The notes beneath the pieces are model-generated. The model did not search any database. It saw only the letters and a program-made list of their open reading frames with translations, and was not told the DNA's origin. A DNA stretch of 25,280 nucleotides from a virus (lineage: Duplodnaviria; Heunggongvirae; Uroviricota; Caudoviricetes): IMG/VR virus record IMGVR_UViG_2713896907_000003. One strand, given 5' to 3'. The number at the start of each line of letters is the position of its first letter. Position 1 is the stretch's first letter. Of the stretch, positions 20,423-25,020 are shown piece after piece. Both the position numbers and the translations under genes were made by a program.

Positions 20423-20628
20423 TATTCACCTCTCGCAGCCTTACGCTTATCTTCTTTAATCTTGAAATAAAGATTTGTCAGATACGTCAGCAGGCCAAAC
20501 AGCAGACTTCCCAGCACACCTATTGCCACCCACTGGGACGGAGAGACTTTGTCCAGCAGCTGCAGTAACCAGTATCCCGTCCCCACCGCTGACGTGGTGT
20601 ATGACACACCTGTTGTGATTTTTTCCAT
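20422..20628 (-). CDS. S: Pinholin S (phage-21 type, two transmembrane segments)
   Basis: 68-aa ORF with TMD1 [14 protein letters not shown] and TMD2 [18 protein letters not shown] and a basic C-terminus; sits directly upstream of the SAR endolysin. Confidence 0.85.
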
Positions 20629-20671
20629 CTGATGTATGTCTCCGTCACCGCCGACAGAAAATGAAAGTAAA

Positions 20672-20709
20672 GAAAAACAAAAAAGCCGCCAGTGTCACCC
20701 ACTGACGGC
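20672..20709 (-). terminator. Strong intrinsic terminator ~40 bp upstream of S
   Basis: Minus strand: 10-bp stem GCCGUCAGUG/CACUGGCGGC (one G-U), loop GGUGA, then UUUUUUGUUUUUCUUU. Confidence 0.6.
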
Positions 20710-21075
20710 CAACACCGGGAGCCGTGATTATGGCATTCAGGCTCTGCTAAAAATGCCAGATAACATTCCGGCTCCCCCCCTGATTCAGGTTATAAATGAC
20801 ACAATATCTTGACAACATCCGTCACTGTCTGTCAGAAAATGTACCGCCATATAGAAGCAACATGTGAAGTACATCTATCCTTTTGAGCCAGCACCTCTTC
20901 ACCGAAAGTCAGTGCTGGCTGTTTTTTTCCTTAATAAAGCATCTGTAACTGAAACAATCCGCATATTGATAATATATTGACAGGCATCATTGCTGTCTGT
21001 GAAAAATAAGTCTCTACAAACATATAAGGCCTTTTAGCCAGCGTCTTCTTTCAGGTCAGTCGCTGGCTTTTTTTA

Positions 21076-22917
21076 TTATGCTGCCGGTGCATTTATCTCC
21101 AGCACCAGACTTTCTATCTCAACGCCATACGCTGCATTTTTTGTAACATCCGTCAGCGTCAGCGCATTCAGTCCCAGTGTCAGACTGTCTTTTATAACCT
21201 GGAATGCCGGGCCAGCCACTCCATTCAGTTTCGGAGTAACCGTGGCACTGCCGGCGGTGAACACCAGCTCCAGCGCCTGCCAGTCGTTACTGTAGTTCCC
21301 GAATTCCCCCAGCTTCGTGTTTCCTGACTTCCTGTGGTGCATCAGATTCAGTTTGCCGTCGGTGGTCTGCGTAAAGTACGACATCAGGAACGGATCACCA
21401 GTCCCCGTCATCGTCACACCATCAGGAACAGGAGCGTCTGTGTACAGATAAAGCCCCAGTCCAAACTGGTTGTTTGTCAGAGCACCAGTCAGACGGAACT
21501 TACAGGTCAGCTTCCCTCCCCGGCTCAGCAGTGAGGATGCATTCTTCACCGGATGCGATAGTATCCAGCTTTTACCGCTCTCTTTGACAATTCTCAGTAC
21601 GCCATCCGATAACTGAACGCTGCCCCCGGTAATATTCCACCCCTGAGAAGCAACATCGCCGGCGGAGGCCAGAAGCGATATCGATTCCAGGGATGAGTCA
21701 TCCGGCGACGTAGAGCCACCTGCTGATGGTGTGTTCTCCGGTTTTACACCGGCAATAAATGCCTGTGAGCGCCCTGCCTGCGACAGGATAGCCGAGGCCA
21801 TTCTGTCTGCAATAATCCCACGCCGTGCCCAGGCACTGAAATGGCTCGCACGGTCTGCTGACGTCCAGTTGGCCGATGTCCGGGATGCCGCCCCGTAATA
21901 ACCGGCAGCCACGATATCCGGATCTTCCGTCGGCTCATTCGTGGGCGTGTTTTCACCACTGCCATCTGTCATAAAAGGAACAAAGAAAATATTCTGTGCT
22001 TCCTTTCCTTTATAAGCGCCATACACCGCCTCATATTGTGTGGCGTACTTCTGTTTCCAGATGTATGTGGTGTCGCCACAAATCCACGGCACTTTTTGAG
22101 CGCTTCCACCATGACACTGCGCCGCCATACCGGCAAGGTCGCTACGGAACTGCTGCACCATCGACTGGAATGCTGCAGGCTGCTGAGCATAGCCAGCGTT
22201 TGTCATATCGAATTCACCCTGCATCCAGCATACCGCCAGCAGAACATTTTCAGGATTCTTCGCCAGTGCCGCTTTTGTACGCAGTATCAGATCCTGATAT
22301 AACGGCTTACCCACTCCCCAGCGCGCAGAGTTCTGGCTGGCCCCCGTAGCTTCACTGAATGTACCATCCGCCCCTGCTGTAAATGCTGAACCGCCACGGG
22401 AGCAGGGAACCAGCAGAATCCCGGCATTTTTTGGGATATACGGCAGCAGACGTTTGGCGATATGTAAGCCCTGTCCGACACACCCATACTGACCTTTGCT
22501 TAAATCTGCTTCAGGGTGACTGAACACACTCATATCCTGCACATCATGCAGACAATGATCTGCCGGGATCACATCGTTAAATACACATGCCTCTCCGCCA
22601 GGCGTCACCGTACTGCGACGTGCCAACTGCTTAATACGCGGATCAGGCGCATCATATGAATCAGGAAGAGGAATACCCTCACCATAAGACATGGCATTGG
22701 ACTGTCCGGCCAGCACGACCACGTAGTACCACTCCGGCTCAGTTGTGCCACTGACCACCACATCACCTTCTGCTGCAATCGCCTGCATCAGGGTATAAGG
22801 AGTTATGGCCACAGGGCTACCAAACGGCTGCCAGCCTTCTTTCAGTTTTTGCGTGAGCTTGTCCGCCAGATCTGATGGCGATGCTGCCCGCACAATATCG
22901 TAACGATTAATCGACAT
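21076..22917 (-). CDS. nanS: Phage sialate O-acetylesterase NanS-p type (SASA/DUF303 N-terminal domain, C-terminal beta-rich domain)
   Basis: Start trimmed to ATG 22917 (GGGAGA RBS): MSINRYDIVRAASPSDLADKL...; contains the LAGQSNAMS motif typical of sialic-acid-specific acetylesterases; occupies the post-stx position of Stx-phage late regions. Confidence 0.8.
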   Translation of the reverse strand: MSINRYDIVRAASPSDLADKLTQKLKEGWQPFGSPVAITPYTLMQAIAAEGDVVVSGTTEPEWYYVVVLAGQSNAMSYGEGIPLPDSYDAPDPRIKQLARRSTVTPGGEACVFNDVIPADHCLHDVQDMSVFSHPEADLSKGQYGCVGQGLHIAKRLLPYIPKNAGILLVPCSRGGSAFTAGADGTFSEATGASQNSARWGVGKPLYQDLILRTKAALAKNPENVLLAVCWMQGEFDMTNAGYAQQPAAFQSMVQQFRSDLAGMAAQCHGGSAQKVPWICGDTTYIWKQKYATQYEAVYGAYKGKEAQNIFFVPFMTDGSGENTPTNEPTEDPDIVAAGYYGAASRTSANWTSADRASHFSAWARRGIIADRMASAILSQAGRSQAFIAGVKPENTPSAGGSTSPDDSSLESISLLASAGDVASQGWNITGGSVQLSDGVLRIVKESGKSWILSHPVKNASSLLSRGGKLTCKFRLTGALTNNQFGLGLYLYTDAPVPDGVTMTGTGDPFLMSYFTQTTDGKLNLMHHRKSGNTKLGEFGNYSNDWQALELVFTAGSATVTPKLNGVAGPAFQVIKDSLTLGLNALTLTDVTKNAAYGVEIESLVLEINAPAA

Positions 22918-23003
22918 CGAATTTCTCCCATGCACAGGAATAGAGTAAAAAAGGCCGAAACAGAAGAAAATCACAGGATGAGCATCTGCCAGTGGCAGAT
23001 CGT

Positions 23004-23029
23004 AAAAAAAGGCCGCGCCATGCGCAGCC
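23004..23029 (-). terminator. Intrinsic terminator ~90 bp upstream of nanS
   Basis: Minus strand: GGCUGCGC-AUG-GCGCGGCC (8-bp GC stem, one G-U) followed by UUUUUUU. Confidence 0.5.
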
Positions 23030-23514
23030 AAAACTCACAAGGAAAATGATAAGTAGAATCACAACTTTGATATATGCATGGTCCGGTGGCCGCCCCGGTG
23101 AATTCAGTATCAGCACCTGAATCCGCGCCCCCCAGTATTCCAGCCTGCTGATAACCTCTTACACATGGGGATTCGCCATACGGCAGTATTTCTAATAAAC
23201 AGTAAGTAAAAAAATCAAGCATTATTCAGACTGTTTCTTTTCATCACCGACCACCGTAATGTCACAATCCCACGCATCATCACACCATCAGCCAGTACCG
23301 ACATCAGACGCCCGGTGAAATCCACTGCCACCACCAGAAACAACATGATGACAGTCTGCCCAAAGCGTGCACTTTCCACAGATACTGCCCAGCGGTAACT
23401 GCAGAGCCTGCGCCAGTGGGTAACCAGCCTACGGAGGACGTCACACTGACTATCCCGTAAACCCATCCATGAAAAGCTTTATGGTTGATATGCACCGAAC
23501 GTGGCGCAGATATG

Positions 23515-23538
23515 AAAAAAGCCCGCCGAAGCGAGCCT
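23515..23538 (-). terminator. Intrinsic terminator downstream of the tRNA cluster
   Basis: Minus strand: GCUCGC-UUCG-GCGGGC (UUCG tetraloop) followed by UUUUUU. Confidence 0.5.
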
Positions 23539-23549
23539 GATAATAAATC

Positions 23550-23624
23550 TGGAGCGGGTGGCGGGAATCGAACCCGCATCATCAGCCTGGAAGGCTGAGG
23601 TAATAGCCATTATATGATACCCGC
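23550..23624 (-). tRNA. tRNA with anticodon loop CUUCCAG (anticodon UCC, glyT-like scaffold)
   Basis: 75-nt cloverleaf folded by hand: acceptor GCGGGUA/CACCCGC, perfect T-arm GCGGG-UUCGAUU-CCCGC, perfect anticodon stem UCAGC/GCUGA, CCA encoded. Confidence 0.75.
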
Positions 23625-23627
23625 ATA

Positions 23628-23703
23628 TGGTGCCGACTACCGGAATCGAACTGGCGACCTGATGATTACAAGTCAGTTGCTCTACCATTGGAGCTAAACC
23701 AGC
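23628..23703 (-). tRNA. tRNA-like gene, aberrant (weak anticodon stem; loop CUUGUAA; isotype uncertain, possible pseudo-tRNA)
   Basis: 76 nt with perfect D-arm GCUC/GAGC, T-loop UUCGAUU and CCA end, but the anticodon stem pairs at only 3 of 5 positions and the T-stem has one mismatch. Confidence 0.5.
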
Positions 23704-23708
23704 ATGTT

Positions 23709-23783
23709 TGGCGGGACAGCGTGGACTCGAACCACGATAAGAAGGTTAACAGCCTTCCGTAATGATCTTTATACGACTGACCC
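23709..23783 (-). tRNA. tRNA with anticodon loop CUGUUAA (anticodon GUU, Asn-like by sequence)
   Basis: Perfect T-arm CGUGG-UUCGAGU-CCACG and anticodon stem GAAGG/CCUUC; acceptor stem has one mismatch; CCA encoded. Confidence 0.65.
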
Positions 23784-23787
23784 CAAT

Positions 23788-23830
23788 AAAAAAAGCCACC
23801 GTTGCAACTTAAGAGTCACTAACGGCAGCT
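23788..23830 (-). terminator. tR'-like terminator immediately downstream of the late promoter
   Basis: Minus strand: 9-bp stem GCUGCCGUU/AACGGUGGC (two wobble pairs) with a 17-nt loop, then UUUUUUU; lies between the promoter and the first tRNA. Confidence 0.45.
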
Positions 23831-23837
23831 TACCTTC

Positions 23838-23870
23838 TAATTATGGCTAAATGGATAATTGCATGTCAAG
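23838..23870 (-). promoter_or_regulatory. Late promoter pR'-like (sigma70 -35 TTGACA, 18-nt spacer, -10 CATAAT) overlapping the 3' end of Q
   Basis: Minus strand: TTGACA (23869-23864), spacer tgcaattatccatttagc, CATAAT (23845-23840); position just after Q mirrors lambda pR' (established knowledge). Confidence 0.45.
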
Positions 23871-24365
23871 GCCTTTAACAGCAACATGCTTAACTTTCTC
23901 AACACGTTTACGCATTTTGAAAGCATTTTTCATTGGCTGGTATAAAACAAATAATGACGCTTTCAGGATGTCGTCAATTTCGTTTCTACAGGTTGCCAGT
24001 GAAGGTTTTCTCCATCCCTCGCCACCACGTCCACACATCTTGCGTGGCTTTGCAGTCGCGTGATAGTAGGATGCAATTGCTCGCTTAGATGAACCATGAG
24101 CGTAGTAGCTGAGGAGGATGCCGAAGGCTTTCTTGTCAATGTACATGACGGAATCGACGACCTGAGAAATCAACATTCCATCATCATCATTACACATTGG
24201 CCTTGTCATAACTCTTCCCGGCTCTACGCTCTCCATGAACTTAGCTATTACGCTGCTCATGCGCTTTTCCAGACGACCTGAATAAACCCATGCGCCCCAC
24301 AGTTCAAGCCAGCCATTCAGCCACTCGTGCTGTTCTTTGGTGAGGTTTAGTTCTCTTATGCCCAC
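23847..24365 (-). CDS. Q: Late-gene antiterminator Q (non-lambda Q family)
   Basis: ORF upstream of the late promoter, tRNAs and lysis genes; LELWGAWVYSGRLE motif resembles the QuuD-type Q family as recalled. Start placed at GTG 24365 behind a GGGAGAAGG RBS; the track's longer form (start 24422, GTG, no RBS) overlaps ninG. Confidence 0.65.
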   Translation of the reverse strand: MGIRELNLTKEQHEWLNGWLELWGAWVYSGRLEKRMSSVIAKFMESVEPGRVMTRPMCNDDDGMLISQVVDSVMYIDKKAFGILLSYYAHGSSKRAIASYYHATAKPRKMCGRGGEGWRKPSLATCRNEIDDILKASLFVLYQPMKNAFKMRKRVEKVKHVAVKGLDMQLSI

Positions 24366-24408
24366 GCGCCTTCTCCCTTGTGATTTGGAATGTGTTTTAC
24401 TGAGAACG

Positions 24409-25020
24409 TCATGCAGCCTCACTTCTGCTGTTTCGCAGTTTTTTAAGTTTCTGTTGATACTCCGCCTTGATGGCCCTGCACTCTTCGACAGTCCAGCGAT
24501 GGCGGTTATGGTCTGATTCGATTTCCTCTACTGCTTCCTGCCCGATGCGGTTAATCAGTTCGACACGATACGGAACGAGATTTCCGCTTTTATGCTGGTT
24601 GCACACCACGCATTGCTTGTGAATATTGCGTTCATCAAACCGGAGTTGAGGTGCCGCAGCAGTTGTCCGGTAATGCCCGGCATCCCACTGAGCAGACGTG
24701 AGCGTTCCGCACGAGATACATGGTAAGTCGCGGTCTCTTTCTCTGATGAAGGCGTTTACGGCTTGTTGGGCTTGTTTAATCCAGTAACTGCGGGGCTTTA
24801 AGGCGAGTTTTCTAATCTTAAGTTTATCTTTCTGTTTCTGCTCCTCTCGTCGTCGTTTCTTCTCTGCTGCTTTTTCCGCTTTTTCGCGTTCTTTGCTTCG
24901 TCGTTCGAGTGCTATCTTGGTTCCACACTCTGGAGAGCACCACCACTGATTAGCGAATGCAGGATGAAACCATTCCCGACATTCATCGTTTTTACATCGT
25001 CTTCGCGCTGGTTTAGCCAT
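24409..25020 (-). CDS. ninG: NinG / Rap recombination-associated structure-specific endonuclease
   Basis: 203-aa [50 protein letters not shown]... matches lambda NinG as recalled; GAGGAAGAAG RBS. Confidence 0.9.

Follow-up and report, generated by a model that had tools for sequence, protein, structure and literature searches.

A tRNA-Asn-Thr-Gly cassette in the late leader of a lambda-like prophage, with a middle gene joined from two tRNA-Thr genes

Phage tRNA genes have long been explained by codon supply, and work from 2024 to 2026 has shown that some of them replace host tRNAs that defence nucleases have destroyed. Here, we describe three tightly packed tRNA genes (Asn, Thr, and Gly) in the late leader of a lambda-like prophage. 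They lie in a stretch of DNA of 25,280 nucleotides (nt), IMG/VR virus record IMGVR_UViG_2713896907_000003, which we will term the window. A lambdoid tRNA cassette in this position is a known kind of element, and public databases already contain annotations of this one. Three things appear to be new: the hybrid origin of its middle gene, the natural allele series to which that gene belongs, and the match between its stem defect and the rules for escape from the OLD nuclease that were published in 2025. In Shiga toxin (Stx) phages, the tRNA genes ileZ-argN-argO are packed into the pR'-tR' leader, upstream of stx or nanS-p and the lysis genes, and are Q-dependent. The window has the same layout of tightly packed leader tRNA genes, but its anticodons are GUU, UGU, and UCC rather than CAU, UCG, and UCU, its Q is of another type, and it has no stx genes. 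For the biology of Stx phages, this means that the tRNA set past pR' is not fixed but goes with the type of Q/pR' module.

Two other lambdoid systems are closer. The first is the Asn-Thr pair of phage 21, Sf6, and P22-like phages (Sf6 AF547987; tRNA-Thr21, PMC12445682). The window has the same Q, late promoter pR', qut, terminator tR', tRNA-Asn (apart from G19A), 5-nt spacer, and tRNA-Thr sequence as far as position 25, and the tRNAs are likewise placed directly past tR'. In contrast to that pair, the window's tRNA-Thr is of the host thrU type from position 26, the arm that has been tested experimentally (U28-A42, G27·A43) is replaced, and a tRNA-Gly is added. The second system is the Thr-TAT-Gly doublet of lambdoid prophages, which has the same 3' two-thirds of tRNA-Thr, the same TAT spacer, the same Gly scaffold, and the same location between Q and the lysis genes. 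The allele G42U/U43C of the window's tRNA-Thr, which we abbreviate as UC, occurs in doublets too. Unlike in the doublet, the 5' part of the window's tRNA-Thr is of the phage 21 type, a tRNA-Asn precedes it, and the Gly of the trio lineage carries A38G together with U8C or G10A.

The remaining point of comparison is the phage tRNAs that resist nucleases. In lambda-infected cells, P2 OLD is lethal because it cleaves host tRNA-Thr(UGU) after C28 and C40, which lie within paired CNG motifs (CUG at 28-30 and CAG at 40-42); its cleavage of Asn(GUU), Lys(UUU), and Val(UAC) is slower (PMC12445682). Resistance to OLD needs both an alteration of the CNG motif and a shorter anticodon stem, jointly (PMC12445682). 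Phage tRNA-Thr(UGU) genes rescue the cells; among those tested was the tRNA-Thr of phage 21, which protects and restored the decoding of ACA (PMC12445682). AriB, of the PARIS system, has Lys(UUU), Thr(UGU), and Asn(GUU) as targets; its cut falls between positions 40 and 41 and depends on U36AAU39C40/A41 (the slash marks the cut) and on U16 in the D-loop (PMC12409363). Resistant variants include those of T5 (Lys, Thr, and Asn, against AriB) and the coliphage tRNA-Thr6 and phage 21 tRNA-Thr21 (against OLD), and two of the window's three anticodons, UGU and GUU, are found among them. On balance, we lean towards reading the trio as a late-leader cassette, recombined from two lambdoid tRNA modules, whose Asn and Thr most likely replace host tRNAs that are cut by Toprim nucleases.

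To locate the genes, the whole window was searched with Rfam RF00005 (gathering score 29) and with ARAGORN, and the three genes, each of which encodes its CCA, are as follows:

23709..23783, minus strand: tRNA-Asn(GUU) of the phage 21/Sf6 type, CCA encoded (ARAGORN call Asn(gtt) with these ends; RF00005 match at 23783-23712, 52.2 bits)
23628..23703, minus strand: hybrid tRNA-Thr(UGU), CCA encoded (RF00005 match at 23703-23631, 47.0 bits; alignment against Sf6 and K-12 thrU)
23550..23624, minus strand: tRNA-Gly(UCC) on a glyT-derived scaffold, CCA encoded (ARAGORN call Gly(tcc) with these ends; RF00005 match at 23624-23553, 46.9 bits, compared with 64.9 for glyT)

The E-values of the RF00005 matches range from 1e-8 to 3e-7 (for the whole window), and all three genes, including the middle one, score above the gathering score. 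The spacers are AACAT (5 nt) between Asn and the middle gene and TAT (3 nt) between the middle gene and Gly. A first-pass annotation of this DNA, made by folding the sequence by hand, had proposed these coordinates and spacers, and the boundaries from Rfam and ARAGORN agree with it; it had given no strand, which is minus. It had also read the anticodons as GUU, an ambiguous UGU type, and UCC, and the readings GUU, UGU, and UCC are borne out. The badly paired anticodon stem that it saw in the middle gene is real: pairs 27-43 (A·C) and 28-42 (C·U) are broken, which leaves 3 base pairs (bp) in place of the usual five. The 7-nt loop CUUGUAA is kept (C32 U33 U34 G35 U36 A37 A38), with the anticodon UGU followed by A37. 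Synthetase recognition depends on G1-C72, C2-G71, G35, and U36 for ThrRS, on G73 and the anticodon GUU for AsnRS, and on U73, G1-C72, C2-G71, G3-C70, C35, and C36 for GlyRS. All of these elements are found in the trio.

We consider it essentially refuted that the trio is really ileZ-argN-argO, with the anticodons misread through wrong cloverleaf boundaries. Only the analogy of position with Stx phages speaks for this. The boundaries and anticodons from ARAGORN and Rfam refute it, as does the annotation of near-identical public DNA as Asn, Thr, and Gly, and genes of the ileZ and argO types look different and occur in other cassettes (such as that of L160, described below). With its phage 21/Sf6-type Q, pR', and tR', the trio is distinct from the Stx-phage set, as the first-pass annotation had suspected. 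That annotation had offered, as the other possibility, remodelled host scaffolds that hand folding misassigns. The first half of this idea stands, in that the Gly gene (72 of 75 positions identical to K-12 glyT) and the last two-thirds of the middle one (thrU) are derived from the host, but no anticodon was misassigned. Similarly, the middle gene is aberrant as it had said, but it had missed both its origin by recombination between two tRNA-Thr genes and the recurrence of its stem allele.

The hybrid origin is seen in the alignments. Positions 1-25 of the middle gene are identical to the tRNA-Thr of Sf6 and phage 21 (25/25) and differ from thrU at 7 positions. Positions 26-76 are of the thrU type, with 48 of 51 identical to K-12 thrU (the differences are G42U, U43C, and A49G) and many mismatches to Sf6. 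In other words, the 5' half is GCUGGUU... with the phage 21-type D-loop CAAUGGUA rather than the thrU-type GCCGACU... with the D-loop AGUAGGUA, and the anticodon arm is ACUGA/UCAUC (thrU type) rather than the phage 21 arm GUCGC/GCGAA. Homology to Sf6 ends within the gene, at 23666, and the alignments show the crossover to lie in the GGTAGAGCA block (positions 18-26) that both Thr genes have in common. The three acceptor positions at which the parents differ all become G·U wobbles in the hybrid (U3·G70, G5·U68, and U6·G67). The reciprocal hybrid would carry three A·C or C·A mismatches there, as deduced from the parental sequences. A further apparent mismatch, A52·C62 in the T-stem, is already present in native thrU.

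As judged by alignment, then, the cassette has two parts. The upstream part (Q, pR', tR', Asn, the 5-nt spacer, and Thr 1-25) is the Asn-Thr module of phage 21 and Sf6, and the downstream part (Thr 26-76, TAT, and Gly) is the widespread prophage Thr-TAT-Gly doublet, the genes of which go back to thrU and glyT of the host. Lambdoid prophages often carry this doublet between Q and the lysis genes, and it is present in 872 of 5,426 complete E. coli genomes. Of 114 doublet copies, 69 have a Thr that matches K-12 thrU exactly, and 49 have a Gly that matches glyT exactly. Phage-flanked extra copies of thrU and glyT were reported from Shigella in 2015 (PMC4539685). We rejected a direct capture from the host chromosome: in the K-12 operon thrU-tyrU-glyT-thrT, tyrU and a gap of about 200 nt separate thrU from glyT, while the TAT spacer is identical in 139 of 139 doublet and trio copies examined. 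The proximate donor was therefore a prophage doublet.

In one contig (L015), the 3' half of the hybrid is thrU without modification and the Gly is close to glyT, and ARAGORN calls the hybrid tRNA-Thr. By its sequence, L015 is an intermediate. The homology between L015 and the window stops exactly at the 3' end of Gly, at 23549, and so tRNA genes mark module boundaries; tRNA genes themselves serve as crossover points between phage modules.

The second feature of the middle gene is its stem allele. In the patterns that we used to search for thrU-type and hybrid genes, all ten anticodon-stem positions were left free to vary. The variation is nevertheless confined to positions 42 and 43, which always change jointly, to UC, to CC, or, in a single degraded copy, to AU. 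Among the fetched thrU-type and hybrid genes, a compensating change at 27 or 28 was never seen. At least 9 haplotype backgrounds carry UC, which is spread over several kinds of cassette, mostly with the other stems intact. These backgrounds include the hybrid with U68 or C68 and thrU-type genes with U16C/U20C, U16C/U59C, U16C alone, no other change, C2U, G24A, or C3U/G15U/U16C. Doublets with UC include those of TUM9757, M19, and several IMG/VR contigs. On thrU-type backgrounds, both UC and CC genes are called by ARAGORN. UC is a minority allele: UC or CC is found in 3 of the 110 copies that are unique to a second viral scan, and among the complete genomes the exact UC doublet is present in 6 and its one-mismatch class in 9. 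Of the 25 hybrids with UC, 17 also carry U68C, which improves G5·U68 to G5-C68. To judge by this distribution over backgrounds, the 42-43 allele is not random decay.

Some UC genes have unusual neighbors. In E. coli O121 201805972 (L160) and in L146, the order of the cassette is CAU (ileZ-like), Arg(UCU), Thr(UGU) with the UC allele, and a last gene (L160 1554-1625, L146 2795-2866) that is a glyT scaffold switched to the anticodon UAC. PGAP and ARAGORN call this last gene tRNA-Val; it carries A38G, and its 3' end is damaged (one C is lost and CCA is absent). Val(UAC) is one of the tRNAs that P2 OLD cuts. In E. coli M19, the gene at L029 3416-3492 combines an argO-like scaffold with a UUU anticodon; ARAGORN calls it tRNA-Lys and PGAP leaves it unannotated. 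It sits just before a Thr gene with UC (and G24A, also unannotated) and a Gly gene, and Lys(UUU) is the prime target of AriB. In a different vein, about 30% of thrU-type prophage copies (L030-L142, IMG/VR) carry U16C and/or U20C in the D-loop. U16C has been reported to impair the cleavage of tRNA-Lys by AriB (PMC12409363).

The phage-type Asn of the window has the arm GAAGG/CCUUC, with CNG on neither strand, and reads UAAC39 C40 U41, so the UAAU39 element is lost. The hybrid Thr keeps C28-U29-G30, but on the 3' strand CAG has become CAU, C28 is unpaired, and the stem is reduced from 5 to 3 bp. It thus combines the features of the OLD-resistant tRNAs (UGU with A37, an altered CNG, and a shortened stem) by substitutions that differ from the tested ones. 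With respect to AriB, the hybrid keeps UAAUC/A and has A16 where U16 would otherwise stand, while neither 27-43 nor 28-42 is paired. The defect in the hybrid's stem therefore appears to match the published pattern of escape from OLD, reached by other substitutions. The resistant phage tRNAs likewise have anticodon-stem changes at or near the cut sites, with CNG alteration and a short stem in the case of OLD (PMC12445682, PMC12409363). They differ from the hybrid in that their changes are G30C/C40G plus U43A, or C28U/G42A plus G27·A43, instead of G42U/U43C, and in that their stem is one pair shorter while the hybrid's is two pairs shorter. The hybrid also keeps the UAAUC/A element of AriB, and its resistance is proposed by analogy. 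We found no test of the G42U/U43C allele in the literature, including the main text of PMC12445682 (its supplements were not covered).

The favored reading would work as follows. Readthrough of tR' by Q-modified polymerase would transcribe the three tRNAs, which would then be excised from the late transcript. During lytic growth, they would supply the decoding of AAY, ACA, and GGA/GGG, as suggested by their position and by work on relatives. Asn and Thr would most likely replace host tRNAs that Toprim defence nucleases have cut in the anticodon stem. G42U and U43C, by removing the CNG motif of the 3' strand and shortening the stem, may confer resistance to OLD through a different pair of substitutions. 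The supply of rare codons (ACA and GGA) could be a second benefit and is compatible with evasion. The window's own copies may or may not be fully active.

We also considered a stronger proposal, which we hold to be less likely than not: that G42U/U43C (and its sister CC) in thrU-type phage tRNA-Thr(UGU) is adaptive and opens a third way to evade Toprim anticodon-stem nucleases (P2 OLD, PARIS AriB), that the hybrid is a working tRNA, and that such cassettes are shuffled and edited as anti-defence kits, of which the switched scaffolds (glyT to UAC, argO-like to UUU) would be further products. Temperate lambdoid phages hold a natural series of alleles (host-identical thrU, the L015 hybrid, the hybrid with G42U/U43C, and the hybrid repaired by U68C), and this series makes the idea of escape testable.

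A number of observations weigh against evasion, or against a working middle gene, and we take those on the nucleases first. In becoming a hybrid, the gene gave up the phage 21 arm that is protective in experiments and regained the host's UAAUC/A site for AriB. Among the 110 copies unique to the second viral scan, 107 have a Thr that is identical to host thrU; a host-identical tRNA should be sensitive to the nucleases, and therefore evasion is not the general reason for carrying these genes. We also dropped an association between UC and U16C, which is a determinant for AriB: it had P = 0.0015 when copies were counted and P = 1.0 when haplotypes were counted.

The other contrary observations concern the quality of the genes. 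ARAGORN makes no call for the middle gene (23628-23703) in the window and skips the hybrid with UC in every carrier, and PGAP omits the U68 form of the hybrid, which is the form in the window. The Rfam scores fall stepwise, from 73.8 for thrU to 58.6 for the L015 hybrid, 49.0 for the hybrid of phage JLK-2012, and 47.0 for the window. The canonical cloverleaf of the hybrid is weak (−12.0 kcal/mol, compared with −24.8 for thrU), and energy predictions favor a register-shifted arm (28-31/42-45, with 4 pairs and a 10-nt loop) by about 3 kcal/mol. The window's Asn carries G19A in the D-loop, at a universally conserved G, a change that is in none of the other 23 copies. Its Gly has, besides a compensated change relative to glyT (C6-G67 to U6-A67), three uncompensated changes at conserved positions: A38G, G10A (giving A10·C25), and U66C (giving A7·C66). 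More broadly, a newly broken pair is present in 14 of 23 Gly copies from trios but in 7 of 113 from doublets. (Minimum-free-energy folding was dropped as a test of tRNA quality: it is uninformative because host thrU itself gives no cloverleaf as its minimum-free-energy structure.)

These last observations would be explained if the trio were a decaying scar of recombination, which in the window's lineage would have a nonfunctional pseudogene in the middle, perhaps joined by Gly, so that only Asn would matter. Such a scar could persist through its location in a short leader and through the rarity of selection on prophage genes. The misses by ARAGORN and PGAP are what decay predicts, as are the 3-bp anticodon stem, the three acceptor G·U pairs, the weak cloverleaf, the changes added by the window itself (Asn G19A and Gly U66C), and the state of the Gly genes in trios, every derived copy of which has U8C or G10A. 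Related cassettes also hold genes that are clearly damaged, such as the truncated "Val" of L160. What decay does not predict is that the stem variation is restricted to 42-43 instead of being scattered, or that UC lies on so many haplotypes with mostly intact stems. Some of these haplotypes are in cassettes that are unrelated to the trio, and therefore UC is older than the scar and has persisted. Also, U68C improves the pairing in most of the hybrids with UC, the Rfam score of the middle gene is still 18 bits over the gathering score, and both parental halves come from working tRNAs (host thrU and the tRNA-Thr of phage 21, PMC12445682). We think decay somewhat improbable, but it is a serious rival for the window's own copy.

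The pattern in Gly differs between the two lineages. A38G is present in 22 of 23 trio copies. Common changes in the doublet Gly are compensatory (C6U with G67A; G49A with C65U). From these sequences, the Gly of the trio lineage looks less constrained than that of the doublet. We had supposed that the Gly changes were private to the window, which was wrong: the U66C allele is shared with the contig from E. albertii NBRC 107761 (entries L007 and L025, which are the same) and with L019, and only G19A in Asn is unique. Apart from G19A, the window's Asn is identical to the copies of Sf6, JLK-2012, and DEC5B. The Asn of the phage 21 type has a D-arm (GUAU/UUAC, with a U13·U22 mismatch) that resembles that of glyT, and a U4·U69 mismatch in the acceptor stem is conserved in all copies, Sf6 included.

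A different explanation is that the cassette serves codon supply only: it would raise the scarce Thr-UGU and Gly-UCC, plus Asn, for the late genes, and the 42-43 allele would be neutral. In E. coli, ACA and GGA each depend on one tRNA of low abundance. In the late genes (6,063 codons), ACA makes up 19% of Thr codons and GGA 15% of Gly codons, and in the NanS-like gene 14 of 42 Thr codons (33%) are ACA. The E. coli averages are about 13% for ACA and about 11% for GGA, and these late genes are modestly above them. That most prophage doublets are host-identical also fits dosage better than evasion, and the 2015 study of phage-borne thrU and glyT copies came to the same conclusion (PMC4539685). 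However, the enrichment is modest, and Asn codons are not rare. Supply also leaves unexplained why uncompensated changes cluster at 42-43 and why both the Asn and the Thr of phage 21 lack the CNG and UAAU elements, and the tRNA-Thr of phage 21 counters OLD in direct experiments (PMC12445682). We therefore regard supply as the sole function as unlikely.

Turning to the distribution of the cassette, carriers of the trio number 13 among the 5,426 complete E. coli genomes, to which E. albertii NBRC 107761 and 18 IMG/VR contigs are added. The records of phage JLK-2012 and E. coli 2013C-4830 label its genes Asn-Thr-Gly. In the seven O55:H7-type genomes that are closest to the window, PGAP annotates Asn and Gly only. 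ARAGORN and the tRNAscan-SE step of PGAP silently drop such variants, and therefore the tRNA repertoires of prophages are under-annotated.

The trio lies between a late promoter and a nanS-like gene, as the first-pass annotation had it, and the features around it are:

23847..24422, minus strand: Q antiterminator gene of the phage 21/Sf6 type (maximal open reading frame; Pfam Phage_antitermQ, 1.4e-25)
23840..23869, minus strand: late promoter pR', which overlaps the 3' end of Q (TTGACA-18-CATAAT, 11/12)
23786..23830, minus strand: terminator tR', directly preceded by the qut region (placed by mapping the annotated Sf6 terminator, L003 1571-1615, through an alignment with 98% identity)
23513..23538, minus strand: terminator-like hairpin, AGGCUCGC-UUCG-GCGGGCUU followed by a U-tract (from a terminator scan; conserved in JLK-2012)
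21076..23031, minus strand: NanS-p-like esterase, the first long late gene downstream (Pfam DUF1737+SASA+DUF6645)

From Q into the middle tRNA, the window is 98% identical to Shigella phage Sf6 (AF547987) over 713 nt, and the Sf6 record annotates pR', qut, tR', tRNA-Asn, and tRNA-Thr at the matching positions. The Q region is 98% identical (DNA) to the region of Sf6 gene 59. The likely start of Q is the GTG at 24365, which gives 172 amino acids as in Sf6 gp59 and in DEC5B, and in the closest genomes PGAP labels the gene "antiterminator Q family protein". The promoter maps onto the annotated pR' of Sf6, where the record reads "nearly identical to phage 21 late promoter". The sequence of tR' can be seen as GCUGCCGUU...AACGGUGGC followed by U7, and the U-tract stops 2-3 nt before tRNA-Asn. 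A simple terminator scan did not find tR' because its loop is longer than 8 nt. As the tRNAs are in the late-operon leader behind tR', they are expected only upon antitermination by Q, and by analogy with phage 21, Sf6, and Stx phages they are presumably made only when Q antiterminates past tR'. The hairpin with the UUCG tetraloop starts 11 nt past the CCA of Gly. It is a predicted terminator, which would end a short transcript with only the tRNAs unless Q-modified polymerase reads through it. In other phages, the sequence that follows the doublet is unrelated, beginning with the very next base after CCA.

Between the tRNAs and the NanS-like gene (23032-23549, about 500 nt), we found no stx genes and no convincing open reading frame. 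In relatives, the corresponding region holds a TerB-like gene (tciA) and DUF3927, and in JLK-2012 also a match to the small RNA STnc100 (L001 4109-4281), which was not detected in the window at the Rfam gathering score. The NanS-p-like gene, which relatives annotate as a SASA family carbohydrate esterase, has its likely start at the ATG at 22974, and holin and lysozyme genes follow it. The window as a whole is a mosaic: its lambda-type structural genes (1-20600) reach only about 91% identity with any E. coli phage or genome, and the module with Q, the tRNAs, nanS, and the lysis genes (20449-24378) is 99% identical to an O55:H7 prophage. For the trio itself, the nearest relative is E. albertii NBRC 107761, with 1 difference.

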